62,447 bases of DNA, filler included, from Candidatus Omnitrophota bacterium (GCA_043812495.1; 8 parts of 7 records of this genome joined end to end with filler, not necessarily neighbours in it), one strand, 5' to 3'; counted from the first letter of the whole stretch, positions 5,906 through 28,923 are shown. The notes: generated by a model not told the origin, from the sequence alone. Translations and numbers: made by a program.

Positions 5906-6006
5906 NNNNNNNNNNNNNNNNNNNNNNNNNNNNNNNNNNNNNNNNNNNNTTAATTAATTAANNNNNNNNNNNNNNNNNNNNNNNNNNNNNNNNNNNNNNN
6001 NNNNNA

Positions 6007-9000
6007 AGACAAACTACCGCCTTGCTGTCCTCCGCGAGGGGCTATGTCCTCGGCGACGCCACAGGAAACAACGTGCCCAGCTCCCCATGGGCCCTTCAAA
6101 ACATCGCCCTCAAGAGAGCTGACCTTGCTCCTCATGCCGTCTCAGCCCTTGAACAGGCCTTAATAAAAGGAAACACCGGCGCCCTATGGGCCCTTCAAAA
6201 CATCGCCCTCAAGAGAGCTGACCTTGCTCCTCAGGCCGTCAAAGCTCTTGGGAAAGGCATGGATAAAGGCAGTACAACAAGTTTTGAGGCCATGACCAGG
6301 ATCGCTCAAGAAAAACCTGACCTTGAAGAAGAGCTTCCTTTTGAAACTCAAAAAGCTTTCTTATGGGGAAAGAACAAGCTGCCTGTAGCTTACGGAATTT
6401 ATCAGCAATATAAAGACCAGGATAGTCCCAAAGCTTTTATTGAGGAATTAATACGTGCGTCCCGGGAAACAATTGCCTCACCATTCGATTTCAATAACGA
6501 GGAAGACGTTTTATCCGCATTCATCGGTATCAGAACCGAGGGCATCACCGATGTCGATTTCGACGAATTCAAAGAACGTCTTGGAAAACTTAAGGCATTC
6601 GAACAGGTCCATCCCGGCTACTGGGCCAATCTTTTTAAGAAAAGCGATTATCCCGTTATCCGCCTAGCAAGCCAAGGCAATCCGTTAGATATCAGCCAGG
6701 TTGACGAAGACGTGCTTGCGTTTCATCGCAACCAGCTGTCGGAGATCCAGTCGCACATGAACGATTTGAGCTTGCCCAAAGAGCTTCTGGGCCAAGACTA
6801 TGGTGACTTTATCCAAAGGACTTATGCCTATGTACAAATCCGCAAAGAAAATCCAAAAACTCCGATCAACAGCAAACTCTTGAAACAGCACATTAAGTAT
6901 AAGCTGAAAGACAAGACCGTTTCCGATATCGAAAAAGATATCACACAACTCAAAGACCGTACACTTATCAACCAGGCGATGTTTGCCGTGGCCCGAAGCA
7001 TGAGCCAAAACTTCAGCGCCCAGAACGCCCAGCCTTACAGAAAATTGGCGCGCGATATTATCCTCGCCAATGAATTCTCTGATGATTGGGCACGGCACAT
7101 GGCCGATGACGATCCGCTTACAAAAATAGAAACATTCAATAGCTTCTATGAAGACGCCAAACATCATCTCCCCCTAAGCCTGGGGCTCTCTTTGGATCAA
7201 ATACCCAAGCTCAAAGGGGAATTCGAAATATTTACCAAAGACCTCTTTAATGAAATCAGCAAAGCCGTCATCACCAAAGAACAATCAACGGATGGTTACA
7301 CGCTTACCCCGGCCGGATTCTTAGGTGTCTTTCGAGGCCGCGCGGGCATCATCGATTGCTCGTTTGATGTTGATGACAAAAGCGTTGTTGATGGCAAAGG
7401 CGATGCCTATACACGGGCTCTACATGAAGACACGCGATACTATCTGGTGAAGAAAGGAAGCAGCCTTAAAGGCTATGTCGGTCTCCAGGAAGCTCAAGAT
7501 GATCAGGGAAGAAAAATCCTCGCCATTGACACCATCAATTCTCCGTCTCTCAACAGCTCGGAATTGATCCAAGAACTCTTAGGGAAGCTACAGGGTGTTG
7601 CCCTGACAAAGGGTTTTGAAGGCATTGCCTTGCCGAAAGACTTAGACGCCTCCTTTAACTTTGATAACGATGAAATCGTCAAAGCCTTACCAGAATACCG
7701 CAAAGCATCTTCTGTGACCTTGCGACCCATTCATCAGGAATCCTGGAACAAGCTTACGGGTATGTTCGGGAAAGATAAATATAATTCTATGGAACAGGGT
7801 GCATTTAAGTTAGTGAAAAACATCGCAAGGCCGGGCGCGAACCAACCCGTTGCTACTGTCCGCGCCGACCAGGCCTCTTTGACCCGCGCCGACCAGGCGT
7901 CGCTAAAAGAAGATATAAGTCGAGTAGAAAAAATTGCCAGGGATGCATTATTGGAAAGTTTATATTTAAGTGGTTTTCAATTAAGAACTAACAAAGAAAG
8001 AGGAAGGCTCAAGAGATTTTTTGGTAATCCAGGCCATTCAATTAGAATATCTAGAATGTATCCAGAAAAAGAAGGAAGGCTCCAAAGATCTCGTAGTGGA
8101 TTGTCTGGCCGTATAGAATATATTGTCGATTCAATAAAAGGAATTGAAAACAATCCTCAAATATTATTAGATATGGAAGACGGTAGAACTAGAGTTACAG
8201 CAGCTAGTGATCATTCCTTAGCTGGGGATTATGCCTTTGCGCCTCCAAAAGGTACGATAACAATACCTTTGTTCGCAGCAAGACTTATGTCAGATGGGGA
8301 TATTACTGCAATAGTTGGACACGAATTTAACCATTTGGCTAAACGTCATGCAGGATATAAAAGCATTAGCGATGTCGTCGAAGTGGATGCAGGAAATCAA
8401 CCGGAGAGGCAACTTGAAATTTTTGGGTTGAGCTCTCGTTGGGTTCGATCAATAAGACAAATGGCAAGAGATTTTCTTGATCGGGGGTTCACTCCAGAAG
8501 AAATAAAAGAATTCATTTCTCAAGGCAAAGAACTGGAGGCCGATCTCGATGGATTGAAATTAGCTTTTCGACTTGGATTCGATCCATCTCAAGTCGCAAG
8601 CGAGTATCTTAAGGCATCTAGAATAGCTTATGAGAAAGCAAAAAGTGATGGAACGCTCAAGAAAAGCAGAAGAACAGTTTCTTATCAAACTCACCCTGGC
8701 GATGGAGTAAGAAGAGCTTTTCTTGAGCAAAAGGCATTGGAACTCAAAGCACTGGGAGGAGAATATGCCGGGGATATTATAAAGCGGACTAACTTATGGG
8801 CCTCTATCCTCGCCGACTGGGCATCGCTGACAGAAAGCGTTCAGCCGTCAGCCGCCAGCTCTCAGCCCGACGTCGCCAGCCTTTCATCTGTCAACGGCTC
8901 GGCCGTAATCGCCTCAAGCATGCCTATTGTTGCGGGCACGGCTGATGTTATGGTGCATGCCATCAAAGACGGCGGGCACGCTGTCAGGGTCACGCGAGGC

Positions 9001-12000
9001 GATCCTTTCACGGACGCCGGGACCATTAAACTCTTGGAGCAAGGCGCGAGCGTTATTGCTTTAACAGAAAAGGCCGGGCGGGGGATAGCCCAAAGATTAG
9101 CTTTGGAAGGCGGTCAAGTGGTCGCGCGAGACGAAATCGATTTGTCTAAAATGGAAAGCCTGGAAAAACTTGAGGAAGCCAATGTCATTTTTGTCGGCAA
9201 TCATAAGACTGTCAGAGACCTTGCTCATCTTCCCGCCATAGGTAATGATGTAACAGGCCAAGTGGTTCGACAGCTTCTCATATCATCCATTATAGAGAAC
9301 ATCGACTCGATAAAAGTTGCCAAATCCAAAATCAAGCCCCAGGCGCCGCCTCAAAATGAACAAACCGTAAAAACCAGCCAAAGACCCGCAGATGATCCAA
9401 CAATCTCTATCCGCAACGACTCTGCCTCCCTCACGCGCGACATCTACCGCGAGCTCAGAAGCCAAATCGGCGATGACGTGGAAGTGGATGAAAAAGACTG
9501 GAGAGCAAACAACGCCCGCCGTTATGAACATTATATTGCCCGAAGATTAGGATGGAAAGACAGCATAGGAACATTTAGAGAGACACTTGATGATTTTGGG
9601 TGGAGCTTCAAGGAATTGATCTCGCCCAAGCAAAGACACATCACAGACTCCCTCATCCGCAGCCTTCGAGACAGCAATCTCAGAGACGTTAAAGGCAGCG
9701 CGTTTGAATATAAGCCGGGCCAGATCGCCGCGATTTATGTCGCGGCCAAGGCTCTCATCGAAAAAGACCCGACGGTTGTGGCCAAAGCCATCGGGACCGG
9801 CAAGACCAATATCGCGATGGCCGCTATCCACATTACGTTTGATGTGATTGACCGCGTTTGGTGGCGGCGATTAGCCAGGCAAATACCCGGCCCAATCTCC
9901 AAGTGGTTACAAAAGAGAAACGTTATTGAAATCCATCTTTTGGATAAATTGAAGAGCCAATTCCTCGTTGATCATTTCGGTCAATACCTGCAGAATGATC
10001 CCGATGTGGATGTGCGTGTGCTTGGCGCGCCCGAGGACCCGTTTGGGGACGCCGCCGATGCCGTCAAAAAGGGCGGCCACGCGTTCATGCAGGTCAGAGA
10101 CCAATCTTTGATGGAAGAGCAGGCTATACGCGCGTTGAAAAAAGGCGTTTCCGTTATCGGCATATCGATGGCAGGCGAAAAAGGCATTGCTCAAGAATTA
10201 AGCTTGCAAAATGACCAGGTGGTTGTCGTGGACGAAATCGATTTATCGCAACAGGAAAGCGCGCAACGACGTCTGATCGAGAAGGACAAGGTTGTTTATA
10301 TTATTAGCGAGGAAACGCTCCAAGACCTGGCGGATATTCCGGCGACGCCCGACAATCAGACAGCGAATGTCATCCGGTCGCTGGTCCAATCTTCCATCAA
10401 AATGGACAATGAAAAACATCAATACATTCCCTTAGATGTCTATAAACCTCTTTGGAATAGCGAAAAAGGAAAAAATGGAGAATACGACTTTGTTAAAATA
10501 AATGATGAAGAACTGGCCAACAATCAACATGCAAAATTTGAAGTCCGTTTAGTAGACGAAAAAGCCGTTGCCCACCGCGACCGGGCCAAGAAACACAAGG
10601 GCAAATTCAACAAGTTTAAATTCGCTTTCCACGAAGATCCCAAGAGAATCCGCAATGCCGTTATTGACGACCCGCAAGCTCTGATGAACCAGCCCTCGAG
10701 CGTTATCGCCAAGGGCCAGTCCTATCAAGAGCAGTTGGCCGACATCAAGCGTTTGGTTAAAGAGGAACAAATTGATGAAGAAGCCGCCAAGCAATGGCTT
10801 GATTCGATTCCGCAGTTTGTTGAGAATATTTATGATTATTTGAATCGGGCCAGGGAGCAGGGAATACGCGACCCAAAAGACGGGAAACTGAAAAAAGTTA
10901 AAATCACATGGGCCTGGAGCAACATCATGAAGGCCCAGAATCCGTTTGTCCGCATGATCAAGCTCTCAGATAAGGACACCGAAGACGTTGTTGATCAGCT
11001 CTACGAATTGGCCAAGAATGAGAACGCCGAGTATCTCCAAGAACAAGCCGAAGCCATCAGGGGAAGTTATTTGCAGGAGCACGCGGGAGAACCGGATGTT
11101 GAGGCGAGGGCGCAAGAAAAAGCCGGGAAATGGCTCGAAGGCAAAAAGGGCCTGAGATGGAAGTTTATTGAAAATTTTATCAGAGAAGACGAACGCTACA
11201 ACAAATCTTTCCGGCGCCTGTCCGGCCTCAAGGCCTTTAAGCTTTTTGTGAACGCCTGGGCCCAGACAACCGGCATGGAGCTGGGAAAACATTTTTACTC
11301 GAAGTATCTTTCGAGCGAACCGGAAAGATTCCGCGATGTGAACTACAACGTGACAGGCTCCTGGGGCCAGCAAAACGCGGGCACGCATTACGGCGATCCG
11401 CTTGTCTCGGCCATGCTCGCCGTTAAAAGCGTCCGGTCAGCCCAAGAGAAGATTGCCAGCGACATGGGAGGCTGGGAAAACCTTCAGACCAAAGAAGCTC
11501 AAGAGGAATTCGAGAAAAAAGTCCATGAGCTCATTCCAAACCAGGCACAAGACGTCTTCAATGCCCTTACGAGCAAAGATGTCATGGATATTTCTTATTC
11601 GGATGCCATCAGCGGGAAGGGTTTTATTCCCGGAGATCGCATTGTCGCTTTAACCGGTACCCCTGACCGCGACAAAGCGGCCTACCAGAAAATATTCGGA
11701 AAGAAAAAGCCTATTGTTGTGATTGACAAGAACCGGTTCCTGAATTTGGATAATTCAGAATGGGTGGTTGTCAAGACGCTTGAGGAGGCCCGCGAGCGCG
11801 TTGCCCAATTCATCGACAAAGAGACGCAAGCCGACTATATCCTTTTGAATGTGCGCGGAAGCGAGGACGTCGAGGCCTTATCCGGAGAGATCAAAGGCAA
11901 AAAAGTATTTATGATCACAGGCAAGATCGAAGATGAAAAGAGGGCCCAGGATGTATTGAACGGATTCAAAGACCAGGTCCGCGAGGCCAGAGAAGGCGCT

Positions 12001-15000
12001 GTCTTTATCACCCAGGGCGATCCGACCGGCTCCAACATGTTCAGAAAAGTACTTTCTAATAATTCTGCAAAGAAGGCCAATGTTGTGCATATCGATATTG
12101 ACGGCATCACCACCCTGACCCAGCACAAGGGCCGCGTCATGGGGCCGGAACGCCTCAATCCCGCGGAAGGCGAAAAATATTTTACCGTTGTTTATCTGGA
12201 TGATCCCAGCCTGAGCGGTGACAACAGAAATGCCTTAAGAGCTATTCTGGAAGATCAGACACTCTCTGATGAGAAACCGGATGATGGCGGCCGAACAGAA
12301 CGCGAGGAGCTGCTTGCGCAGAAAGCTTTGAAAATCGCCTATCAACTGGATGCCTGGGAGGCCCTGAAAACACGCCAGCTTGCCCAATCTAAAACAACGG
12401 TCAGCCTCACCTGGTCGGAAAATTTCAAATTCAGAAAAATGTTTTATGATCAGGCGCTTTTCGGGACGCCGAAGTTAACTCGACATACCCGGGGCAATCT
12501 GGGGGTCCTTGAAAATCTGCTTGGCGAGCGATGGGTGGAGAGACACGAAAAAGGCAATCTGACGTTTCTTAATTTTATCCCCTACGCGTCCGTTCACGCG
12601 TTTGCCCTGAACATCCTCGGGAAACTATTTGGCCAAAAGTGGGTTAATAAGATCAAGAGGAACAGCCTGGACGTTCTCAATCATCTCGCGCGCTATCCGC
12701 TTGTGCGCTCATTGGCCGTCCAGGAAAATTCGCGCGGCGAGCCAAAGAAAATCGCCAAAGACGTGCTTGACCAGCATAACGGCACGGCCACACTGCACAG
12801 GGCCAATATCGAGCGAGTCGCCTATGAAAAACAAAACGAAGCAAGAGGAAGGTTCTTCTTCAACCAGGCCAAAAAACTCCAGAACTACTTAAACGACAAT
12901 AGTGACCGGGAGTCGTTTACCTGGGGTGAAATCCGCGCGCTTGTCAACGAAAAGACCGCGCTCAGGCTGGCTCCGTATCTCGATTATCCGGTGGATCAGT
13001 TTATCGCGGACATGGACCGCGTGTTCTTAAAGGAGAATAAATCAAAAGACAGAAAACAAGAATATAAGAAGCTGTATCAAAGCCGGAAAAACCGGGATCT
13101 CTTTGTCCAGTTGGCCGCGGGCCAGGACCAATTGACCGAAGAAGAAGCAAGAACGCTTGCCAAAGTGGTTCATAGCCTGCTTCTCTCCAACGGTGACGAT
13201 GCCCTGAACCTCTCCATGGACCAGGTGCTCAAGGCCTATTCTTCCGACGCGAATTTTAACGGCATATCCGCGTTAGCCAGGGAACACGAAGACTTCGTGG
13301 AGCAAAAAGGAAAAGAGAAGAATCTAGATGACTATTTTACAAATAATATTAAGGAAGGTATCTTCAATGAGGTTGGCCATGGACAGATCAGCGTCAAAGA
13401 AGCGCTTGATAAGCTCAGCGCGGATAACTTGTCTTCCAAATTAGAAGAGACAAAGAGAGAGATCGGTTCCGACCATGTCATTATTCTTGGATATCTTAAT
13501 CCACTCCAATGGTCCCAAGGCATTTCGCCGGCCGCAAGGCAAATACATCAATTTATTCTGCAAAAGGCCTTAGACCAGATGCCGCCGCGTCTTCAAAGAG
13601 CTTTCCTTGGCCGTCCCATCCATGTTGTTGAGACGCTTTCTGAAGAAACGCTCGATGAGAGCGTGTATCTTAAAGCTGAATGGCTGGAGGGCTCTTCGCT
13701 TGGGGCGCAAACGGAATTGGCCAAAGTCGGTCTGGCCGCTTCCTCCGTTTCTCATCAAACAACACTCGGAAGAGTTATCGGCCGGGTCATTTATGCCATT
13801 TCAGAAAATATCCGCGGTAAAAACCTGCATATAGGAGCGGGCGCGGGTAAAGATGAGATTAATCAGATCGCCCGTCTTGTGGGCGCGATCAATGACACAG
13901 AAGATGATCCTGAAAAATGGGATGACAGCGTCTTCACATTGGCCGCGAAAATCGTCCGGGAAGCGAATGAAATTCCGGAAATTGAAAATGAGGACCCGGA
14001 AGCCAAAGACGTCAGGCTCATCCAACAAAAAGATGAAGCCATCAAAGTGTTTACGGGATTACGCGAAAACAAACAGGAATGGGAAGAGAATAGAGAAAAA
14101 GCCAGGAGGCAATACGCCCGAAGGTTCGAAGAACCCGCAAAACCATCCTTTAAAGAAGCCACCAAGGTGCTTTTTGCCGGTGACGGCAAACCCAAGCCCA
14201 AAGAAGAAAACTCCATGATCAAGGAGTTATTCAATCATTGGTTCCCGTTTGACAAAGACGAGCGGCATATGAACTTTGGAAAGGTCAAGGTCCTTGCCAA
14301 GCCGTCATCCGTGACCCTTCTTTCGATCGCGGGAGTTCTTATCGGTACGGTTATAGGGGGGCATGGATTTCCTTTTATTAATCCCGAAGCCCTGGCCGTC
14401 CTGCCTGATGACGGAGCGATCCTTTCAGGTCTCAAGCTCCTGGCAATAGCATTGACAGGCCCTATGGTGCGCGTGGCCGTCGGCGCCGTGATGATTATTG
14501 CCCAAATAAGATTCGAAGACGCAAAAACACGTTTAGGTCATATCGGTAATTTTGCCGTCGGGAAATCAGCAATCCTTTATCCGCTGTTTGCCGCGTATCT
14601 GTCGTCTTTATCCGGTAATTACAATGTCACGGAAACACCCGGGCTCAATTATCTCTTTGCCTACGGCGTCATCATGAGCGGTTACTTAAGCGTTGTGGTG
14701 CACGAAATTGTCCACGGTCTTCAGGCGGCTTTGTTCGGCATTCGCTCAACCGGCATTAAACTGCATGCCTTTGGCGGAGCGAATTCCCTGGAAAGCATGG
14801 GCAAAACGCGCTTCCAACAGGTGATGGTCGCGGTTGTCGGTCCCTTGACCAACCTTGTTCTGGCCATAGGCGCCGCTTTGATCGCTCAGCACTTTATTAA
14901 TCCGCAAACAAGCCCCATACTGGCCAAATTCATCGGCCACGCGGACGGAAATTTCCTTGATATCCTCTGGGAAAACCTCAAAGGATTTACGCAAATCGGT

Positions 15001-18000
15001 AATCTCAACTTTATTAAATTCCAGCTTTATATCACCGTAACCAACTTGATCCTGACGCCGGTGCTGGATGCCGGCCGCATGTTTAAAGCCATGGTCTTCA
15101 AGGGCCGATATGATGAAATCGCGGCCACACGAAAAACAGTGAAATGGGGCGGCTTGCTTGGCGTTCTGGAATTCAGCGCCTTGGCCTATTTCACGGGTAT
15201 TTGGTATCTTCCGCTCTTTGGCGTAGTCCTTGCCGTTATGGGCCGCAATGAATTGCTCAACATAGGAAAACGATTCGGCCGCAAGGCCCCGAAAAATGAT
15301 TCAAGCATGCATGCGGATTTGATTCCGGGTGCTTCAGTGGTTGCAGATTATTTCAAGTCAATTTTGTCCGCAAAAGGGAAAACAGGAGCTGCTTCACAAA
15401 CAGCGGAGGGTGTCGTGGCTGACAAACGAAACGCTGAAAAAGCATTACAAGGAGCAGTTCCTGTTTTCCCTATAAATATACCCACACCGAAAAAAGGCTC
15501 GGGATTACCTCTTCCAAGTAGTCCATTTGGGCTACCAACGCCGATGGGCACTGGCTTGCCTCTGCCTATACCCATCAGTAAAGGTCCGGCACCGGGAAGC
15601 GGCACTTTCGGCGGTCAACCAGATCATCATATTATGGAATTTGCAAGAAGCGGCGCAAGTCCGGCTGATATGTTAGCCATTTTAGCCCCTGAGGACAGCC
15701 GGCAGGGTCATAAAGCGGATGTCAAAGCTAAATTAGCAGAATCAGGTAGCGGAAACACGTCATCAGGCGGAATTCATGACAATACAACCTTAGCTGCCGG
15801 ACGCTTCCCCAGCGTCCCAGGCAGTGCAAATGGTATAAGCGGGGAACCAATAACCACGGCAGTAAGCTATGCCCGATCCGCTCCTGTCGGCATAGGGACT
15901 GATAATAGCACGAGTAGTCAGGGAGTGAACAGCGCGAACGATGTGCGTTCGAGCCTGACAGGTTCCAGCTCTGAAAGAAAAGCTGAAACCGGTGGTGCGA
16001 GAGGTGTGCGCCCGAGAAACGGAAGAAACACCCACAGTTTTGCTGAACTGTCTGCCACGGGTCTTACGGATATTCAAAACGCCACGGATCTTGGTGGAAA
16101 ATATGGCTACGATCGCTCTTTATATAGAGGTATAACAGGTAATAGCGCCATCAGCATAGTCTTAGCTGATGCAAGCTCTATGAAAGCCATCAGCGAGCCT
16201 GTCATGGTTCGTGAACTGGCCGGATATAGAGCTCAAGCTGCCTTAGATCGCCAAGCAGAGACACAAGGGCTAGAGCTGCGTCAACTGCTTCAAACCCTTG
16301 GAATACGTCCTGCTATAAGATTTGATGCAGACGCCAGCTTATATGCTGAAAATGGCTCATTACCGGTGGTTCCCGGAGTGCGTCAAGAAGTCCTCACCGG
16401 GAATACGGCTTTTGAAGTCACGCCTGCCATTATAAGAGAAGTTACTAGCGGGTTAAGTGCAGTTGCCTCAGAGTTCTTCAGATCGGGCGATGCGGAAGCC
16501 GCTGCAGCCTCAGATAACGAGCCGGTAAGCCAACAAGCAATATCTTATCCAACTGGTCATGGATTAGATATTCAACCAACAAAAGAGACCAGGACATTTG
16601 GAAAAACTCCGAATACGCCACGTAGGAGTTCTCTTGCTTATAGAGCCCTTCCATTAATCATTCTTGGCATCATCCTTGTCGCTGTTTTGGTTATTATTCC
16701 TTACGACTACAATTTCTTCTATACACCGCTTTTCGCCGGAGCCAGTGCCGCCTTGCTGCCGGTGGTGGGGATGATAACGAGTACAAACGAAGTGTCTCAT
16801 CCATCTAACACTGTTTTTGTCAAAGTAATCGAGCGTCGTTACAAAAACATCAACTTCTCTCAACTTATCCGTCTGCTGTTTCTTGCGGCCATGATTCATC
16901 AATGTCTTGTGGCCACAGTTATATCGTCCGCCGTTCATTCACCCGAATATTTTATCATAAGCGGTGTTGTTCTTTTGTTGGCGACACTGGCCTTCATCAT
17001 CAACGGCCTCATTGTTGGCATTCGAGGCAAAGACGTTACCCTGCCCATCCTCTTGACCGTAGACGGAAGATTTTATTGGACATCGCCCTATTTGAAATCC
17101 GATATGAAAAAAGTCCTGATTGTTCCGGCAATCGCCTTCACCCAGGTGATATTCCCAATCGGCACCCAGGTGATATTCCCAATCGGAAGCATACCTGGAT
17201 CTTCGCCGCATTCCCTATTAACAGGGAAGCTGTATAGCGTCTTAAAGAGAATTCTTCCATTCATTATCGTTATAGTGGTTATTGCGGTTTTGTTAAACAA
17301 CCCGTCCTTGGTCTTGGATAATCTGGCCGCGGCCAGCCTGACGCCGATGCTTGGTATGTTGAAAGTAAGAGAAGATGGGCATGCTTATGAGAGCCTTCAT
17401 GAGCTATTCTACGGCAATATGTCAACAGTCCATGAATTTGAGAGTATGCTAAATACTTATCAAGCATTTGGTTTGGAAGCGGGCTTTGGAATGGATGAAT
17501 TTGGAAGATTGACCAACCCCGTATCCATCGGCCGCAGGACAGGGGTTAAAGTCAGGAATTATTTATTTAACGCCAAGCATGTCCATATTCATCCCGAAGC
17601 GGACAGATCTATTAGCATACCAGATTGTTATGGAAAAGATGGCAACCGCAGAGGGTTAACGAACGAAGCAATAATTGTTTGGGGCGCGGGCAGAGAATTT
17701 TATCTGAGCGTCATCAATCTTCTTAAGCTCCCTCGTTCTATTTATGCTGAAAACGAGAATGGAAAAGAGATATTCGATCACGCAGGTGAACTCAAGGAAG
17801 ATGTTCTTTATGAAAGGGGGATTTTGGAATTTTATCGCGTCAATGAAGATTATGCTTTACAGAAAATTTCGAGAGAAGAAGTTCGTCGCATTGAAAATGA
17901 TTTAAGACTAAAATCGCATTGGGATCGGAAGCGGGCTTTAAAGAACTGGGGTACATTGATACAAAAATATCTCGGCGATGAATCCAAAATGTTTGAATCA

Positions 18001-21000
18001 GCTATTATTCACAGAACGATCCTTAAGATTTTGACTGTTAATTCAGGATATGATTATGACCAACTTGTTGAAATATTTTTCGGCACAAAGGCATATAACA
18101 CATATATCTACCACGAAGATGTTTCATTTATCAGAGATATTTTAGAGACATTAAATGATCAATTTCTAGCTGCCGGCAAGACAAAATCTGCCAGGTCTAC
18201 CAGGGAATTAATTCTACGCATTAATCGTAAAATGAATTACCTTATTCCTTACAATGGCCAAAATGGGCAAAAAGACGGCATCACCCTCTACTCCTTCCCC
18301 GCCATTGATCCGAGAGCCGTTAAAGATTTATTTCAGTCGGTTGTCAGCCACATCCGAACAATCAGAGGCCTGGCCAAAGGCCGCAACCCCTCCGTGGCCA
18401 CCGTGGACGGCCAGACCTTGCCTGCCGATAGGCAGGCCTCTGATGATCCTTTTGCCAAAGCCTTTGAAGACCTTCCCACCGACCGCGTCTTCATTGTGTC
18501 GGACGGGCTTGCGCGGATTTTGTCCTTAGATGAAAGCGCCAACGCAGGAACGGTCGGGCAATATTCTTCGGAAATGTCTTCGGGCTTAAAGAAGGCCCTT
18601 AAAAGGGAGGAAGTTGAGCCGGAGGCGATTTCCCAACTGCTTGCGCCCGGAGCCATCTTTGTTTCGGACGCCTATGAGGGGACGAAACAACGAAAGGAAT
18701 TGGCCCATGAATTCTTCCATCGCATTTACAGGAACGGGCCGCAATCGCTTCGCGACGCGTTTAACGTGGCCTGGAATTCCATCCCCGCGGAACTAAGACA
18801 GAAAGTCATGGCAGAATTCTACCGAAATCGTTACGGTGAGTCGTTCGAGGGTCATTACAGTGAAGAAAACAGGCCGGAAGAATTCTGGGCCAATTTTATG
18901 GCCGCGATGATACAGGCTAAGGATAGCGGCCGCGGTTCGACTCCAACGCTCAGTAAAGTTATCGCCAATGACAACGTTGTGCAGGTACTTTTTAGAGAAG
19001 GATTCGCGCGCCGGTTCGAAGAAAAACTGGACGCGCTTGAAATCACGCCTGTGGAAGTGACGTTTGAATCCGATTTGCCGGTCTATGACGGCCGCATACA
19101 ATATCTAGGTGGATGGATTAACGATATCTTTGGAATTCTCGCGATTGCTATCGGAGTAATCGCTTTAATAAAATTAGTTGAAACATTAACCCCACATGTG
19201 TTCCGCGCCACGGGGCACTCCCGCAGGGAGAGAACAGAAACCAGACCACAGAGAACAGAGAAAACATATCTGCGTCATCTGCGCTTCGAATCTGTGCTAT
19301 CTGCGGTTACAAGAGGAGGTATGCCATGGAACGACAAACAAAATACCAATCGATCATCTTCGACCACGCGGTCGAATTCATCAAGGACGACTGCGTCTTC
19401 GCGGCGGGCAAAGAACCGTCAGGAAAAACCAGACTCTTTCTCATTTTTAACCACAATGGAAATATCTATTCCCGTAACGGCAGGGAGAATTCCTGGGAGC
19501 AGCTTAAAGCCAGTGACGCTCACGCCATCCGCGAGAAGGCAAGTACCGCCAACATCAAACGCTACAGCGCGAGCGGTCACTTCGAGCAAATCTAAAGTTT
19601 TCACCCTCATCACCGCTGCCATCCTTGCTTTCTTCGCCGCCACACCTCTCCAAGCCGCCGAAGCAGGTTTTATAGAAACAGATAAGTATTTTCTTATAAA
19701 GTTTATAAGTTATTTCCTCCTTGTCCCATTGGTCGGCGGGCTAGCACTTGTGATTCATGAAACGGGACACTTTACTCCATCCAAAATATTTGGCTATCGA
19801 CCGAAGTTTAATTTTGGTGGGGAGGATGCGGAGGTTATACACAAGCCCTCTGCAGGCCATTCATTTCACGGATGGAAATGGATAATAGTTTGTGCCGGCG
19901 GAATGCTTATGAACCTTACGATGGGCGCAATAGGTTACATTATTTTCTTTCAGCAAAATGTTGTTTTACTTGGAGACTACCTAACCAATATTTTCAAATT
20001 GTTTACACTAATAAATTTAGCTATGGCAGCATGTTTCTTTATTAGTTTTAGCGAGGATTCAGATATAGCCCTAGTCATTGAAGCCATCAAAAATACATTT
20101 AAACAAAACAAGATAAAGAAAAATGCTTTGTCTTCCAGAATTAATGCCAAACCCGCTCAACCCGCCCAAGCCGAAGAAACCCTCTCAGCCAACATCTTCA
20201 CGCCTTTAAACATAGCAATCGCCGGGTTCGTTGTTGTTCTTGCCGCAATTATGACCTACCGATTCTTCAAAAACCGCGCGAATTCAGCAAACAAACAGTT
20301 TCCTTTAGGCAGGGCCACAGCGGCTTACCAAATCTTTAGAGCCCTCTTCGATAATGCCGCGCAAGACATTTTCAACGTTATGATTGCCTCTCCGTGCCAG
20401 TACAAATGCGCTGAGTGCATCGCCCGTCCCGCCATCAAAGAAATTGAAGATGCAAACGAACCGCTGTATGTGGACGCACAACACCTCCGCAATCTCTTCG
20501 ATGAGCTGGCCGGATCAAACAAGGTCCAAATCGTCGGGCTCGGCGAACCGACAACCTACGGCAAGAGAGATATTTACACCGAAGGCGTAAGCCAGGACTT
20601 TTTAGACATCATCCGCTATGCCGCAGAGAGGATTAAGGAAGTCCGCATTTATACCAACGCCTATGTTGTTCCCGAAGATTTTGAACTGGCCAAAGTATTC
20701 TTCGCGCAGTTCCCCAAGAACGTTGTCTGGGTTGTCTCTGTCGACAAAGACCACAAGGCTCAGATGAAGCTCCGCACAGGAAAATCCCTAAGGAACATCA
20801 TCAAAATAATGGAACAATTACACGCCAAAGGCCTTGTGCAAGTCAACTATCATGTTACCAGAGATCTTACGGACGTTAAGAATCGCAAATTACTAAGACG
20901 TTTTGGGCTGTTCTTTGTGTCCTCCAAGAGAATACGCATGGAGACAAAAATTGGGTTGGGGGCCGCGATAGATCATGAGGATGCAAGAGATTTTGAAAAT

Positions 21001-24000
21001 GAAAAATTGCAAAGACATATAGAAACGCCTAAAAAGATTTACCCATATATCGGTATGAATGGAAGCCTTTTGACTTCAGTACACGTTGCTTTTATGCCGC
21101 GCCAGCAGCGATACGACACTGGGATAATTAGCAGCCTCTTTGATGAAACGACCAGCCCAATCGCTTATCGATCGGCCATTATTGGAAATACCCATGAGAA
21201 GCCCTTATCCGGCCTAATCTTAAACAATCTCATTTTCTCCAGAAATTATGACAAGATTTTCCGAAAAACAGCGCTCGGCCCCGATGCCATCAGAAATATT
21301 CTGCGCTCATTGAACGAGTATTTATTCGGGGATAAAGAGCAGGCCCTCGCCATGTTCGCCCAGGTCAAAAAAGAGGCCGCTCGTTGGGATGACGTTTTCG
21401 ATCCGCGCACAATCTATAACAAAACCTTTGAGTTAAGAAGTATCATGGGAAAACTTTACGCCTATCCTCCGTTCAGGGATTTCATCCGAAAATCGTTTAC
21501 GACCTCTCCCAAGACCACACTTTATGACAGATTTATCATCACAAAAGTCATCCCGATAAGAAGCAGCAAAATTATCGTTAAAATAGTTGATGAAAAGATG
21601 GTTTTCACGAGAGTAATGGCATTTATGATTGGCTTATTTCTTACTTATGTTTATTGTACTTTTGATTGTGACATGCAGACCGCATGTGTCAGGTATACGG
21701 CTATATCCGCTCTTGTCATTTTTGGTTGGATTCTTAAAGATTTTCTTGAATCTGTCAACATAGATCTAAATGGACGATATGAATATCATAATAACAGCAA
21801 GCTATTCTACTTCTTATCAGGTAATTGGTTTAATATACGGAATGCAAGGAAAGTTTCCAAATACATCGTTAGAGAATTCAAAAAAGAATTCGGAGAAGAA
21901 CTCAAAAATGTTAAATTCTTCCGCTTTTTGGCAAGTGTGTGGCTTAATGTGCAGAATGCAAAGAATGCTATCAGGAAAGCCTTCAAAAAAATAACAACTA
22001 GTATTCAGAAAGAAAACAGAAATACTCTCCAGCCTTCTTTACCGGAAGAACCTCCCCAACCCGCCCAAGCCGAAGAAACCCTCTCAGCCAACATCTTCAC
22101 GCCTGAGGCTGTCGCGGCCATCGGGCTTGTCCTCACGCTCGCGGGGATCATGATCGCGCACAACTTCTTTAAAAATCGAAGGAATTCAACACAGCGGGGA
22201 ATGAGAATTGCCACCCCAAGCCAGGGCCCGCCGGTGAAAGCGAGAATTTCCCCCGCCCTAGCCATCCTCGCTCTTTCCGCTGTTCCCGCCTTCATCATTC
22301 TTTTCGCCGTCTTCCCCGAACACAGCCTTGCGTTTATGCCGGTCGCGTTGTCTGATATTGCTTTGCCGGGATTGATGGGAGCAATAAAAAGAGAAAAAAC
22401 AGTCCAAGAGGAATCTGAAAAACTGCCGAAACAACTCTTATTGATATTGCCTAAAGTATCAATAAACGAAAGAATATACCTTTTGAAAGACCACAGAAAG
22501 ATGTCGGTGTCCCAGTTAGCAAAAGCTTCTGGTCTTTACGAAAGAGTCATCCATGATTATATAAGCGTGGCTTATAAGTTTAACATAAGCACGAGAAATC
22601 TTATTAAGCTTGCGCGTGGTTTAAGGGTCGAACCTTCATTAATCCTTGTAGGACTTACTTTTAAGAAGGCCATCAAAGGTCTTGCTCTAGCAAAGAGAAT
22701 AAACTTATGCATGGTCATCTCCGGGTACGGCATCGGAAGATTAGCAAAAAAAGTGATTCATGTGCAGTTTGAGACATTAAAAAGTTGGATAACCGGTCAA
22801 GAAACGCCGAAAACAGATCAAATTATTAAATTAGCCAGGGCTTTTGGCATTGAGCCGTTATTGCTTTGCACGGATCTCTCTTTTGAGGAAGCTATCAAAA
22901 AGAAGAGCTCTTCTGTTGGTGAAGACATTCAATTATTGAGGTTAGAGAAGAACATGCTTAGTAAGGAATTTATAAAGGGGAGAGGCTTTAGCGCAAATAG
23001 CCTTTATTCTTGGGAGAGCGGTTACAGCATTCCAAGCGCTAAATTTCTGAGAAAAATGTCCGCTGCCACCGGCATTGAAGCATCATTGCTCATGACGCAT
23101 TTTTCTGCGGAGAACTTAATGAGACAACATAAACGCACAGGGGAAAGGATAGGGGAGCTTTTAAAAATCAGAAGTATCAGCCCGGAAGAACTCGCAGGAA
23201 AAATGGACGTCTCCATTGAAGAAGTCAATGTATGGATCAACCAAGAGTCCATACCGACGCCGGAGCAAATCATCGCCATGGGCAAGATATTCGAAGTCAA
23301 CGCCTTATCGATATACACATATCTTACTTTCGAAGAAGTCTTAGTAAGAAACCGAACATTGGCCGATAGGATAATTGTTTATAGGATTTTCAAAGGGATT
23401 GATCGGCATGCATGGCTTGATCTCGCAGGGATAGCAGTGGAAACTCTGGATGATTGGGAGCAGGATCGCGCAATTCCGGATTTTGCGAGTATTGAGGTTT
23501 TAGCAAGAACTTTCGGAATCACACCCGTGGATTTGTTGAAAGGATGGCCGCTCTTAAATACTCTGAAAAGGAAAGAACAAGCCGCTGATCGCGTAATATT
23601 GGCTCGCCTATCCAAAGATTTATCCCGGAAAGAGCTTGCTAAAAAGAGCGGCCTGAGGGTCGAAAGAATCATCGCGATCGAAGAAAACAAAAACAAACCA
23701 TCTACTAGCGATCTTCAGGCCATTGCCAAAGTTTGTCCGGTCAGCTTTGCTGATTTTATCAATGGATTAGCGCTTGAACAAATAGATCAGGCAAGAGAAA
23801 CTAAGAACAAAGGATATGCAGAGTTGCCGGAAGGATTATTAAAAGCATTGCTTAAAATGTCAGTCAAGGGAAGGCTATGGTACCTGAGGAACTATAGAAA
23901 AATGTCGATAGCCGACCTTTCGAAGGCTTCCGGTGTTTCCGAAAAACGTATCAATGATTATGAAAACGAAAAAAATGGGAAAGGTTTGCTTCCAAGAACC

Positions 24001-27000
24001 ATCGTCAAGCTTGCGCATGGTTTGAGGGTCGAGCCGTCATTGATTTTTATAGGACGCCCCATCAAGGAAGCTCTTAAGGGCCTTAGCCTTGGAGAGAGGA
24101 TAGATTTATGTAGAGAGATCTCCGGATCTTCCCAGGGCGTCCTAGTACATAGTTTGCATCTAACACCACTGATCTTCAGAAAATGGATAAACAATCAGAG
24201 AACGCCAACAACAGATGAAATTATTAAATTAGCCAGATTCTTTGGCATGGAGCCGTTATTACTTTGGACAGATCTTACATTTGAGGAAGCCTTATGTGAG
24301 AGCTCTTCATTCGGTGAAAATATTCAGCTATTGAGATTAGAGGAGAACATGCTTCTTGATGAATTTTCTAAAAAGACAGGAATTAGCCAGAATGCTATTA
24401 GGCTTTGGGAGAAAAATGTTTCCAGGATAGACAGTAAGAATCTGAAGAAATTATCCGATATATTTGGCCATGAAGAGTCATTGATCTATGCAAGCCTTCC
24501 TTTGGAAAAGGCTTTAAGACGGCGTAAAATTATGGCCGAGAGAATAGAATTGCTCATGAAGGTTAGGGACATTACTATTGGGGAATTAGAGACAGAGATG
24601 GGATCTGATCAAAAAACGATCCGTCAATGGTTAAGACAAAAGAGTAAGCCAGGATTGGATAAAATCATTAGAATGTCAAAAATATTCAAAGTTAATGCCT
24701 TGTGGATATACACACACCTGACCTTTGAGGAAATCTTAAAAGAAAGCGAGAACTTGGCAGATAGAATAATTATCTTAAGAATGGATAGAGGAATAAATAA
24801 AAAAGAGTTGGCTCAACAAATAGAAGTAGACATAACTACTATTGGGGCATGGGAGACGGGAAAGATTGGCCCGCAAATCTCTCACATCCACGCTCTAGCC
24901 AGAGCCTTTGGGGCTGAAACTTCAGCATTATTAAAAGGAAAACCGCTGAAAAATATTATCCGAAGAAAGAGAAGCCTGGCCGACCGTGTTCAGCTAGCTC
25001 GCCTATCCAAAGATTTATCCCGGAAAGAGCTTGCTAAAAAGAGCGGCCTGAGGGTCGAAAGAATCATCGCGATCGAAGAAAACACAATCAAGCCATCCAC
25101 CGGCGATCTTCAGGCCATTGCCAAAGTTTGTCCGGTCAGCTTTGAGGAGCTTATTGAAGGATTAGAACTTTGGGGTGTCGATGGAAAAAAGAGCAGGACA
25201 GCGGGTGTTTACACGCTGATGCCGGACTTATTCGGAATCTTTGCGGTTGTGGTCATAGCCATCGTTTTAAACAAATTATTCAAAACATTAACCCAAAACG
25301 TGTTCCGCGCCACGGGGCACTTCCGCAGGGAGAGAACAGCCGCCAGAGGCGAGCCTCGCTCGCCTCGCTCGACGCGAGTCGAAGCGGGCCAAAGGCGGGA
25401 AACCAGTAAACAGAAACCAGATTCACTGCGCACTACATACGAGATGCGATTTTCAAGTCTATCAAGGCAATCAGGGCGGCTAGCAGGGCGGCAACAAGGC
25501 ATCAGGGCTAAGGAAGGCCACAAGACTATGAAAGGCGCCATTGACCTTGCCAGAAACTTGTTGTCTTTTGAATCCTTAAGCCTTATTAGCCTTGCTATCT
25601 TGATAGCCTTTAATAGCCCTGTTGCCTTAATAGCCGTGTTGGCCCTGTTTGCCTTTAATAGCCTTGGATTGTCAGTGAATTTATTTAATAACATATACGA
25701 AAAAAACAAAGGAGGAACACCATGGACACGAGAAACAGTAGAACCACTTATGATTCCATTATCTTTGATCACGCGGTCGAATTCATCAAGGACGACTGCG
25801 TCTTTGCGGCGGGCAAAGAACCGTCAGGAAAAACCAGGCTCTTTCTTATCTTTAACCACAATGGCAACATTTATTCGCGCAATGGCAAGGAAAATTCTTG
25901 GGAACAGCTTGACGCCCGCGACGCTCGCCTCATTAGAGAGCGTGCCGGCACCGCCAATATCAAACGTTACAGCGCGAGCCGGATTTGCTTCAGTTTCCCC
26001 TACAGGCGAACGCCGATGGCGACAGCCGAGGCGACCGGTCACTTCGAGCAGATCTAGATTAGCTCTAACCCAACCTCAAAAATCTTCCCAGTCCGCTTCA
26101 GCCGACAAAACCCTCTCAGCCAACATCTTCACGCCTTTAAACATAGGGATCGCCGTTTTTGCCCTTATTTTTATCATATCCTGGATCGTGATATCCAAGG
26201 AAAGCGAGAAGATAAGGGCCGAACTGATGAAAGAATCGGATTATATCAGAGGGATCCTTCCTTTTGATCTGGAGCCGGTTGGAATTAAACTCGATTTTGG
26301 TAGTTTAATTAGTAATCCTCTCTTGGAGAAAAGACAAATATCTCTGACAACGTTTCCCTCACTCAAATATAAAACATTTATTCATGAATTGATGCATTTT
26401 GTCTATTGTGACCAGATGAAGGTTGATGAGCAAGCTTGCCGCGGTGTCATTTCTTTAATGTGGGAAAAGAAAGCAGCAATCCCGATGATTGTCATTAAAA
26501 TTGCCTCTGCTCTCTTATGGGTTCTTGCATTTGGGATAAGCTATCTATTGATTAATCTTTTCATTGCCAAAGGTATACCTGATCTTCCAATGTGGTTTGG
26601 CCTATCGGATCTAACGATCGGAAGGGTTACTGCTATAGTCTTTGTTGGACTTGTTGTATTAAAACAAGTTCTTTGGTTTAAACAAGAAGCTTATCGGTTC
26701 TTTAAAATAAGTATTGAAGAGAATCCAAATTCAAATAGTGCTGAAGTTTGGAGAAGAACATCAGATGAAAAAGATGATTATCTAAGAGAAAATTCCATGG
26801 CCAGCCCTGATGAATTTGCGGCCGATGCATTAACGTGGTATCTCTTTGAACCAGAAGAATTCAGAGAAAGAGCAGGAAATAATGAAAATATTCGCGAGCT
26901 CTATCAAAGGATTAAAACAGGATTTTTCAAAGATGTAGAATATACGATAGATCCATCCAGTGAATCTTTACTCAAGATTGTCGTGTTAAGGAAAAATTCT

Positions 27001-28582
27001 GCTTTGCCTATGGACAGGGATTCGGATCTATCTACAAAAAGGGACGGTTCTGATCCTTCTACCCAAACCGATCAAGACAGCCAAACCCTCCTAGCTTCAA
27101 CCGGCATCCTCACGCCTGAGGCTGTCGCGGCCATCGGGCTTGTCCTCACGCTCGCGGGGATCATGATCGCGCACAGCTTCTTTAAGAATCGAAGGAATTC
27201 AACACAGCGGGGAATGAGAATCGCCACCCCAAGCCAGGGGCCGCCAGTAAAAGCGAGAATTTCCCCCGCCCTAGCCATCCTCGCTCTTTCCGCTGTTCCT
27301 GCCTTCATCATTCTTTTCGCCGTCTTCCCCGAACACAGCCTTGCGTTTATGCCGGTCGCGTTGTCTGATATTGCTTTGCCGGGATTGATGGGAGTAATAC
27401 GAATTACCTCCGCTAATAAAAATAAAATCAGTGATTTCTACAACCAACCCGGCGCCTTTCCGCGAATAAAAACCTTCAACATCACGGACTTGCTTGGAGA
27501 GGCTCTTAAGCATGGTAAAATTAAACAATCCTTCCCACTTCCAAATGGAAAGACATGGGGTAAATATGAGAGTATGCAGGTGGGAGTAGGCCTCTCCAAA
27601 ATCATGTGTGAGATTGAAATGAGAAACGCTACTGACGCCACATTCACTTTCACAAGCTATAAAAAAGATGCAAAGGGACATGATGAAGAACACAAGAAAA
27701 GCCGTTGGCTATGGACAGGGGAAGGTACACCCCAATATCAACCGGAAGAAACTGTTGAATCGAAGATAATCTCAGAAATCAGTGATTTCTACAACCAACC
27801 CGGCGCCTTCCCGCGAACAAAAACCTTTAACATCACGGACCTTCTCGGCCCAAAGGCTCTTAAGCATGGTGCAATCAAACGATCCTTTCCTCTTCCCACC
27901 AAGGGAAAGACATGGGGTAAAAATGAGGGTATGCGGGTGGCAGTAGGTCTCTACAAAGTCACATGCGAAATTCACATGGAAAGCCCTACACAAGTCACCT
28001 TCACATTCACAAGCTATAAGAAAGGTAAGGATAAAAAACACAAGAAAAGACGCTGGCTATGGACAGGGGAAGACACACCCCAATATCAGCCGGAAAAAGA
28101 TGAAAAACAAAAGCAGGAGCAAGAGAAAGCTATCAGAGACAAAATCATTGCTTTTTACAGAAGAACCTATTTTCCGCGAACAAAAACCTTTAACATCACG
28201 GACTTTCTTGGAGAGGCTCTTAAGTATGGCATTATTCAAAGTACCTTCCCTCTTCCCACCAATGGAAAGACATGGGGTAGACAAGAAAGCAGTATGCAGG
28301 TGGGGCAAGGCCTCTCCAAAGTCATGTGTGAGATTGAAATGAGAAGCGCTACTGACGCCACATTCACCTTCACAAGCTATAAAAAAGATGCAAAGGAACA
28401 TGATGAAGAACACAAGGAAAGCCGCTTTCTATGGACAGGGGAAGGCACACCCCAATATCAACCGGAAGAAGATGAAGAGTTGAGGAGACAAAAAAAGGAA
28501 GCCATTAAGAACGAAATCATTGCTTTCTACAGACGAACCGATTTTTCGCGAACGAAAACCTTCAACATCACGGACTTTCTTG
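6007..28582 (+). CDS. Giant multidomain membrane protein (>7,500 aa), partial at both ends
   Basis: One stop-free frame across the whole 22.6-kb contig; recognisable motifs (HEFNH, HEIVH, HxHx7Sx2D, HEFFH, HETGH, CxxxCxxC, Xre-HTHs, HELMH); the duplicated linker shows mostly synonymous changes in this frame. Confidence 0.9.
17139..17186 (+). repeat. Perfect 24-bp tandem duplication (TQVIFPIG x2)
   Basis: CACCCAGGTGATATTCCCAATCGG twice. Confidence 0.9.
19326..19595 (+). CDS. Nested out-of-frame small protein (89 aa) inside the giant ORF, copy 1
   Basis: AGGAGGT SD, ATG; paralog at 25722 differs almost only at synonymous sites in this frame. Confidence 0.75.
   Translation: MERQTKYQSIIFDHAVEFIKDDCVFAAGKEPSGKTRLFLIFNHNGNIYSRNGRENSWEQLKASDAHAIREKASTANIKRYSASGHFEQI
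20158..20215 (+). repeat. Re-used linker (QPAQAEETLSANIFTP)
   Basis: 48 bp identical to 22057-22104; related copy at 26101-26146. Confidence 0.85.
22092..22381 (+). repeat. 290-bp duplicated two-TM linker, copy 1
   Basis: About 8 differences from 27105-27394. Confidence 0.9.
25722..26057 (+). CDS. Nested out-of-frame small protein (111 aa) inside the giant ORF, copy 2
   Basis: AAGGAGG SD, ATG; same frame offset as copy 1; carries a 57-nt in-frame insertion. Confidence 0.72.
   Translation: MDTRNSRTTYDSIIFDHAVEFIKDDCVFAAGKEPSGKTRLFLIFNHNGNIYSRNGKENSWEQLDARDARLIRERAGTANIKRYSASRICFSFPYRRTPMATAEATGHFEQI
27105..27394 (+). repeat. 290-bp duplicated two-TM linker, copy 2
   Basis: Near-identical to 22092-22381. 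Confidence 0.9.
27427..28582 (+). repeat. Tandem coding repeats of ~351-372 bp (~120 aa), 3 full plus 1 partial
   Basis: FPRxKTFNITD..SFPLP.GKTWG..FTFTSYKK..WLWTGExTPQYQPE. Confidence 0.9.
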
Positions 28583-28923
28583 NNNNNNNNNNNNNNNNNN
28601 NNNNNNNNNNNNNNNNNNNNNNNNNNTTAATTAATTAANNNNNNNNNNNNNNNNNNNNNNNNNNNNNNNNNNNNNNNNNNNNAGATGAAGGCGAAGGAGA
28701 ACCCTACGAAGCTCCCAAACGAGTTCTGCGAAGTCCGCCAATGAATCAATGGCGGACGAAGCAGAACGAAAGTTTTGGAGCGAAGTAGGGTTTGAGTGTT
28801 CGGCTTCGGAGAATGAACCTTCAGGGAATACCTCAAAGATACCCTGCCATTTCTGGCAGAGAGGTTCATTTTATACTACATATTTAAGATTGTGTTATAA
28901 TGTAGTGTAAAGGAGAACGATCC

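Follow-up and report, generated by a model that had tools for sequence, protein, structure and literature searches.

Two paralogous small genes lie out of frame inside one giant open reading frame (ORF) in a 62,447-nucleotide (nt) stretch of DNA from a Candidatus Omnitrophota bacterium (GCA_043812495.1; 8 parts of 7 records of the genome joined end to end with filler), to which we refer as the window. Both genes encode versions of the same small protein, here named X, and in both cases the giant frame runs on the same strand at the X frame plus 1 nt. An initial annotation of this DNA had proposed nested dual coding, in which X is initiated independently and the giant protein treats the same region as a spacer. 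Our analysis supports that proposal on three counts: most X genes in related genomes are nested in the same manner, substitutions change their codon phase inside X, and nested copies lack the giant-frame stop codons that free-standing copies contain. We consider it probable (about 0.85) that this is true dual coding, with X started internally on the giant messenger RNA (mRNA) and the giant frame reading through it as a spacer. Here we describe the anatomy of the arrangement, the selection acting in both frames, the conservation of the start signals and the confidence of the predicted fold.

Two nested genes with a codon-phase signature

Both ORFs were recovered as first annotated, on the plus strand, in the shifted frame and each behind a strong Shine–Dalgarno (SD) site (Table 1). 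The GGAGG cores of these sites, at 19315-19319 and 25711-25715, each stand 6 nt before the ATG, at 19326 and 25722, respectively. Over codons S9-L60 (52 codons, 156 nt), copies a and b differ at 18 bases: 17 are third positions of X codons, all of them synonymous, and one is a second position that exchanges R and K. The probability of finding at least 17 of 18 differences in one phase is about 1e-7 (binomial, p = 1/3). Every one of the 18 changed codons is non-synonymous when read in the giant frame and, despite this scrambling, that frame acquires no stop. The original tally of synonymous changes and the TAA and TAG stops of the two copies therefore hold, and the giant-frame strings quoted with them were reproduced exactly. 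The 68 bases that follow S9-L60 contain 18 more differences, with five synonymous and six non-synonymous X-frame codons, and the last seven codons common to both copies come after the 57-nt insertion in copy b. Of the 42 differences in the whole 238-nt repeat, 30 occur at position 2 of the giant frame, equivalent to X position 3. Four other internal repeats of the giant gene, by comparison, have giant-frame position 3 as the most frequent class or nearly so (6/12, 8/15, 7/19 and 12/24 differences). The evidence first offered for selection on the giant frame in a linker duplicate of 290 base pairs proved weaker than described: the duplicate spans 300 nt (22084 versus 27097) with 12 differences, and its codon changes include the six synonymous ones reported but also five non-synonymous ones, not about two.

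The two copies are each other's nearest relatives (support 96 in the Shimodaira–Hasegawa-like approximate likelihood ratio test, SH-aLRT), the closest outside relative is about 52% identical, and the pair came about through a duplication within the giant gene. No third copy emerged when all six-frame ORFs of the genome were searched with a profile (next match, E 0.14). The 271.5 kilobases (kb) of giant frames in this genome contain four same-strand, alternative-frame ORFs of at least 60 amino acids (aa) with an SD site; two are X, and the other two have weak SD sites and repeat-like translations. The length of the X-frame ORFs is by itself unremarkable, and it is the substitution phase and the conservation in relatives that exceed chance; on these two grounds, together with the contrast in stop codons set out below, we reject the explanation that X is a chance ORF. 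A search of window positions 18000-27000 against Rfam gave 0 matches at E ≤ 1, and an internal promoter was unsupported by a promoter scan (15 sites versus 11.2 ± 3.8 in shuffles). Within the duplicated upstream blocks, about 40 nt (within 19185-19245 and 25290-25347) are nearly invariant between the copies, and changes in the duplicate around them are spread evenly over codon positions (8, 8 and 9). This invariant stretch has no significant structure (z −0.67 and −1.18).

Nesting is widespread among relatives

X matches 70 of 400 other genomes of the phylum (E ≤ 0.01), nearly all of the same order or class. Loci of relatives were taken as about 1.5 kb on each side of genome-survey matches, down to an E value of about 1e-4, and rescanned with a 31-member profile; 11 weaker matches (E 2e-4 to 9e-3), which are the sole match in eight genomes, were left out. 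The rescan yielded 74 distinct X matches in 63 genomes. Fifty-seven of these, in 50 genomes, are nested, every one within the +1-nt-shifted frame, which is open across the entire 1.7-3.2 kb locus (host frames of 524-1,088 codons, with both ends open in almost every case). None of the 74 is nested in the other alternative frame. The other 17, in 16 genomes, are free-standing; both kinds occur in three genomes, and seven genomes hold two nested copies.

Across families of two orders or classes, nested copies are intact, with the SD, ATG, stop and residues that define the fold all retained, so the census goes against capture followed by decay, an alternative that had been raised alongside the dual-coding proposal. 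A second, partly overlapping set, gathered with a 10-member sub-alignment of X from named Omnitrophota contigs with 3-kb flanks, gave 44 nested copies of 46, with the other two at locus edges and host frames that stay open for as many as 2,087 codons.

Nested loci for the most part have unrelated flanks. Among the 30 downstream flanks scanned, of 34, 13 have no Pfam family and one carries a peptidase (M48); the others carry PEP-utilising, Amidase_2, RelA/SpoT, LysM with YkuD, GGDEF, receiver, GNAT and further domains. That single peptidase speaks against the suggestion in the initial annotation that X is an immunity factor for adjoining peptidase domains.

Each frame carries its own selection

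Substitutions between relatives show the same phase change as the two window copies. In three pairs of loci from other lineages, substitutions crowd on X third positions inside X alone, and giant-frame third positions are favoured in the alignable flanks; between L025 and L026, positions 1441-1800 contain 31 substitutions at X third positions, nine at giant-frame third positions and eight others. The X windows of these three pairs also hold fewer substitutions than their flanks.

The expected number of giant-frame stops was obtained by keeping the X protein and redrawing its codons from giant-frame usage. The 54 nested copies tested have 0 giant-frame stops versus about 4.5 expected in each, whereas the 15 free-standing copies tested have a mean of 3.0, with at least one in 14 of the 15. 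The giant-frame peptide across X is rich in Ser, Thr and Leu and is not conserved from locus to locus: in 53 nested loci, Ser plus Thr make up 28.5% of the overlap versus 13.4% of the flanks, and Asp plus Glu 3.2% versus 10.7%. In the window, the overlaps are flanked by hydrophobic segments, with a basic stretch upstream (by eye). We read the giant frame across X, from this composition, as a spacer. As judged from substitution phase and stop counts, X is selected at the amino-acid level and the giant frame across it solely against stops.

X is an old protein with a confidently predicted fold

Searching 1.84 billion representative proteins with a profile retrieved 229 at E ≤ 0.001. The best 150 of the 229 all measure 59-220 residues, so X does not occur among these as an in-frame segment of any long protein. 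A word-indexed protein search returned 164 members of the family, called 'hypothetical protein' where named, and mostly from short contigs or free-standing loci; two members bear odd names that Pfam does not support. The expectation that standard gene callers would miss X therefore holds only in part, as these 164 members are already in the protein collection.

The 31-member alignment contains invariant L, Y, R, N and W positions. With this alignment, AlphaFold2 predicts four strands, a helix and a final strand for X with good confidence (predicted local distance difference test score, pLDDT, 87.6; predicted template modelling score, pTM, 0.78). The fold search proposed in the initial annotation matched this model to no known fold. 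Foldseek against PDB gave nothing at E ≤ 0.001, and a wide VIA-align search gave a top Z of 5.4 for AcrIF13 (59 residues aligned, root-mean-square deviation 2.4), followed by unrelated chains at Z 5.2 and 5.0, all within the tool's stated background. ESM Atlas returned no usable match, and Pfam, NCBIfam and PDB sequence profiles gave no family for X, with stray single-member matches at E ≥ 0.0014.

Two candidate identities found no support in sequence profiles. X does not match MraZ (PF02381) or any other Pfam family; adjacent true MraZ genes score E 1e-38 and 6e-37. For Hfq, the name that one source gives to member P0230, profiles likewise gave nothing: P0230 has no Pfam family, and 0 of the 31 members match Hfq/LSM. 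No Sm protein is among the matches listed by Foldseek and VIA-align, although an unlisted family could still match. We conclude that X is a real and old protein of about 90 residues that, on the structural model, is folded.

Start signals and an RNA leader

Start signals are conserved in all X genes examined. Among the 74 matches, 73 start with ATG and one with GTG, each 5-8 nt behind an SD-like site; most of these sites read GGAGG and three read GGGGG. In 47 of 53 nested loci, the 60 nt surrounding the start are less folded than other windows from that locus, and both starts in the window fold more weakly than their own shuffles (z +1.0 and +1.5).

In sister-class relatives, a conserved 9-base motif lies upstream of 47 of 108 X starts, and an alignment of 28 of the 33 distinct leader sequences contains two long hairpins (single-sequence z −5.1 to −6.1; 22 pairs by RNAalifold, 16 with compensatory changes). 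These leaders (L004-L042 and L072-L107) lie about 150 nt 5′ of the nested ATG, for example at L008:1350-1497, within the giant coding frame itself. A conserved loop containing GUGGCA caps the first hairpin; in the second, a UGACCC bulge is conserved and CCUCC, which is complementary to the SD, lies in the apical loop. Rfam gave no match at any meaningful score for the leader in ten loci, and the two-hairpin leader is absent from both window copies. Hairpins with the same loop motif also occur elsewhere in the window genome, near 24105 and 35696 of the giant-ORF contig G000:C65, with no adjacent X; the first hairpin may be a recurrent giant-gene element in its own right.

A free-standing paralogue points to a probably older X

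Free-standing X has a characteristic neighbourhood. An rsmH-like gene lies downstream of 14 of the 17 free-standing copies, and these 14 are located between mraZ and rsmH, where the division and cell-wall operon begins (including L018, L029 and L034). Pfam identifies MraZ immediately upstream of X in L018 and L029; in the latter it also recognises MraW/RsmH and RibF around X. The window genome has ribF-mraZ-rsmH at G000:C18:62329-64698, where mraZ is followed directly by rsmH with no X between them.

In an unrooted tree of 73 members, a branch with SH-aLRT 97 separates 16 free-standing copies from all 56 nested ones. The exception is L040 (also L115, G236:C8, 5522-9697), a member of the nested clade whose X is not nested; it shares 8 nt with the end of an 880-codon, repeat-rich ORF and 4 nt with the start of the 412-aa ORF that follows, an arrangement that may be a pre-fusion or a re-split state. 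The label of nested or free needs two changes on this tree, which places the nested lineage as the sister group of the free-standing mraZ-rsmH paralogue. It is likely that the giant frame spread over an older X gene, rather than that X arose inside it, because X is conserved and predicted to be folded and has a free-standing sister group, because the overlapping host peptide is compositionally degenerate, and because X of L040 stands un-nested at the end of a long ORF.

Mechanism and alternative explanations

Under dual coding, ribosomes would start at the SD and ATG of X inside the giant mRNA and end at the stop of X, and ribosomes translating the giant ORF would read the same DNA one base out of register. 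The giant-frame product across X would form a Ser/Thr-rich, acid-poor spacer between membrane-anchored modules, and X itself would be cytosolic.

Several considerations weigh against this account of the locus and its history. We infer, from the features described above, that both X and the giant product are made. The open frames around X in relatives are stretches of 1.7-6.3 kb and not entire giant genes, and the relatives are kin, so that counts of nesting and of stops cannot be treated as independent; a single origin of nesting and a single reversal suffice on the tree. For the window copies, the probability of an open giant frame is only mildly low (0.063 and 0.044), and the case for selected openness consequently rests on the family and not on the window alone. 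The tree is unrooted, so that we infer the direction of change, capture as opposed to escape. Finally, the predicted fold resembles nothing convincingly, even at its best Z of 5.4, so any function given to X is a guess.

Translation of the giant frame across X is also needed by an account that refines dual coding and that we find unlikely, in which a welded operon keeps its frame open merely to avoid termination, with its polarity and lost downstream expression, and in which the product would be divided into modules, with no separate function for the spacer peptide. The overlap peptide is indeed of low complexity and not conserved, the mostly unrelated flanks of nested loci carry unrelated enzyme domains, and the host has M48 and M50-like peptidase domains. 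X could instead be the C-terminal domain of a truncated giant product reached by programmed −1 frameshifting, as in dnaX. X does sit in the −1 frame, and internal SD-like sites can stimulate frameshifting, as they do in dnaX and prfB. We reject this route into X as very improbable: the X frame is closed by a stop no more than five codons ahead of its ATG in 15 of 56 nested loci, and no more than ten in 25 of 56, an in-phase X_XXY_YYZ heptamer occurs in the open stretch in only 3 of 56, the ATG found in 73 of 74 has SD spacing typical of initiation, and free-standing homologues start at the same position.

We give scarcely any credence to a decaying captured or mobile gene, whose synonymous signal would predate capture, or to an artefact of assembly or frameshifting. 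Free-standing homologues exist, as capture would have it, and repeats in the contig could mislead an assembler. Decay is nevertheless at odds with the intact signals and residues of nested copies in two orders or classes, and with the window copies, which diverged after nesting, because their upstream flank was duplicated too, and yet have 17 of 18 changes synonymous. An artefact is at odds with the recurrence of the same frame relation in independently assembled genomes.

Within the dual-coding account, the role of X can be approached by analogy. Like comS, which couples competence to srfA, X could be a small regulator or adaptor that ties giant-gene expression to envelope or division physiology, a doubtful proposal drawn from the location of its paralogue in a division and cell-wall operon and from the cell-wall-acting domains in some giant genes. 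The title and available content of 10.1101/2023.11.21.568195 point towards an envelope or division link of the giant gene. Tentatively, these strands might be joined into one picture, in which giant genes were welded from neighbours and overran an older X that serves as a division or envelope regulator delivered in cis. The host frame would then be the overprinting newcomer and X, nested in it, the ancient partner, inverting the way in which overlapping genes usually originate. Transcription of the predation-linked giant gene would deliver X in cis, to be translated separately, and the CCUCC leader of the sister class would gate the ribosome-binding site of X in response to the passage of giant-frame ribosomes.

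The host contig and its giant frame

The giant frame starts at 6007 and is open from end to end of a single contig (G000:C11; 22,577 bases), with 0 stops in 7,525 codons; the other two plus-strand frames have 467 and 374. Spacers of the form N44-TTAATTAATTAA-N44 link the contigs of the window at 5906-6005, at 28583-28682 and at five further sites, so ORFs that touch them are ended by contig edges and not by true stops.

Table 1 Positions of the nested genes and associated features in the window
Feature	Position	Strand	Remarks
X copy a	19326..19595	+	89 codons (89 aa) and TAA; giant frame −1
X copy b	25722..26057	+	111 codons (111 aa) and TAG; giant frame −1
SD of copy a	19314..19320	+	AGGAGGT; giant frame reads Gly-Gly
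SD of copy b	25709..25715	+	AAGGAGG
Insertion in C-terminal tail of copy b	25979..26035	+	57 nt (19 codons) relative to copy a; both frames stay open
Giant-frame overlap, copy a	19327..19594	+	Ser/Thr/Arg-rich, low complexity; hydrophobic segments on both sides (by eye)
Upstream block of copy a	19129..19245	+	Duplicated with copy a; hydrophobic segment and basic stretch
Upstream block of copy b	25231..25347	+	79% identical to 19129-19245; about 330 nt unshared before X
Giant ORF fragment	6006..28582	+	7,525 codons, 0 stops; cut at both contig ends

Pfam domains in the giant ORF are M48, M50-like, radical-SAM-like and many HTH_3. The HTH_3 domains form an XRE-type array at 22400-25200 with internal duplications 1,395-1,398 nt apart, which is unusual for a membrane-anchored giant protein. 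A linker motif (giant frame ...TLSANIFTP...) recurs at 20149-20241, 22048-22140 and 26080-26172, preceding hydrophobic segments at module boundaries, and one of its copies lies immediately 3′ of X copy b. The contig ends in three tandem modules of about 360 nt at 27457-28582 (giant frame ...FPRTKTFNITDLLG...WLWTGEGTPQYQPEE...), and this repeat probably caused the contig break.

The genome comprises 1.94 megabases in 66 contigs and is 90% complete. It contains 13 stop-free segments of at least 1,500 codons, which sum to 271.5 kb (about 14%), and one 75-kb contig is wholly open. Stop-free segments are carried by contigs C65, C53, C20, C63, C45, C19, C42, C35, C52 and C37 of this genome (G000). 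C20 and C63 show an overlap of about 90-160 nt between two huge frames of different phase, which may reflect a frameshift, an assembly error or a real boundary.

Significance and comparison with known systems

Selection for the continuity of the giant frames is independent evidence that record-size ORFs are translated through, and the history of X hints that giant genes grow by fusion over the boundaries of once separate genes. Wherever a giant gene is assembled whole, callers that do not allow overlaps on one strand drop a real and widespread gene, and the peptides of X and of the spacer are concrete targets for Omnitrophota proteomes.

Among known systems, comS in srfAB of Bacillus subtilis is likewise a small, separately initiated gene wholly inside a very large one, on the same strand and in another frame, and is expressed whenever the large gene is transcribed. 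ComS is a microprotein of 46 aa, whereas X has 89-111 aa and a confidently predicted fold; X also has a free-standing paralogue, is conserved across classes of the phylum with up to two or more copies per giant gene, and has as its host frame a degenerate spacer and not an enzyme domain. In the rpmH/rnpA pair of Thermus thermophilus, too, different frames of the same DNA encode two real proteins; each partner is a small housekeeping gene, and the pair has neither a giant host nor a frame that resembles a spacer. Complete out-of-frame embedded genes are also found in phages, including Rz1 in Rz (lambda), E in D (phiX174) and L of MS2, all in viral genomes under size constraint. By contrast, X resides in a cellular host with at least 271 kb of giant frames, where economy of space is not an obvious driver. 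To our knowledge, cellular genomes very seldom contain long, deeply conserved overlaps of two protein frames on one strand.

The host of X resembles the Archaeovorin-type giant proteins of Omnitrophota in having more than 7,000 stop-free codons, a multi-domain mosaic and many hydrophobic segments (by eye), and giant frames of relatives carry PEP-utilising/PPDK, GGDEF and GNAT domains, all of which the available text of 10.1101/2023.11.21.568195 lists among Archaeovorin domains. Genes inside giant genes are not described in the available text of that paper or of 10.64898/2026.06.07.730766, where 'nested' and 'Shine' appear 0 times and 'overlap' appears in other senses only; the supplements of both could hold tables. 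A title-level search of the literature on overlapping or nested reading frames in Omnitrophota returned only unrelated titles.

Within E. coli, the same-strand frameshifted ORF gndA in gnd keeps a syntenic SD, start and stop in relatives, according to the available text of PMC11230408, which also discusses the emergence of gndA within its host gene. GndA has 36 aa, is initiated at UUG and lies inside an enzyme domain (PMC11230408); here, the nested X looks the older partner and the host frame the newcomer. The same source, in the portion available, states that only comS and Thermus rpmH had been characterised before 2019 and puts the known internal overlapping ORFs of E. coli in the dozens, and the characterised bacterial cases that it names are microproteins. 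The genes described here add a fully nested protein of 89-111 residues with a predicted fold, conserved across families of the phylum, in which the selection on each frame can be read from the sequence.

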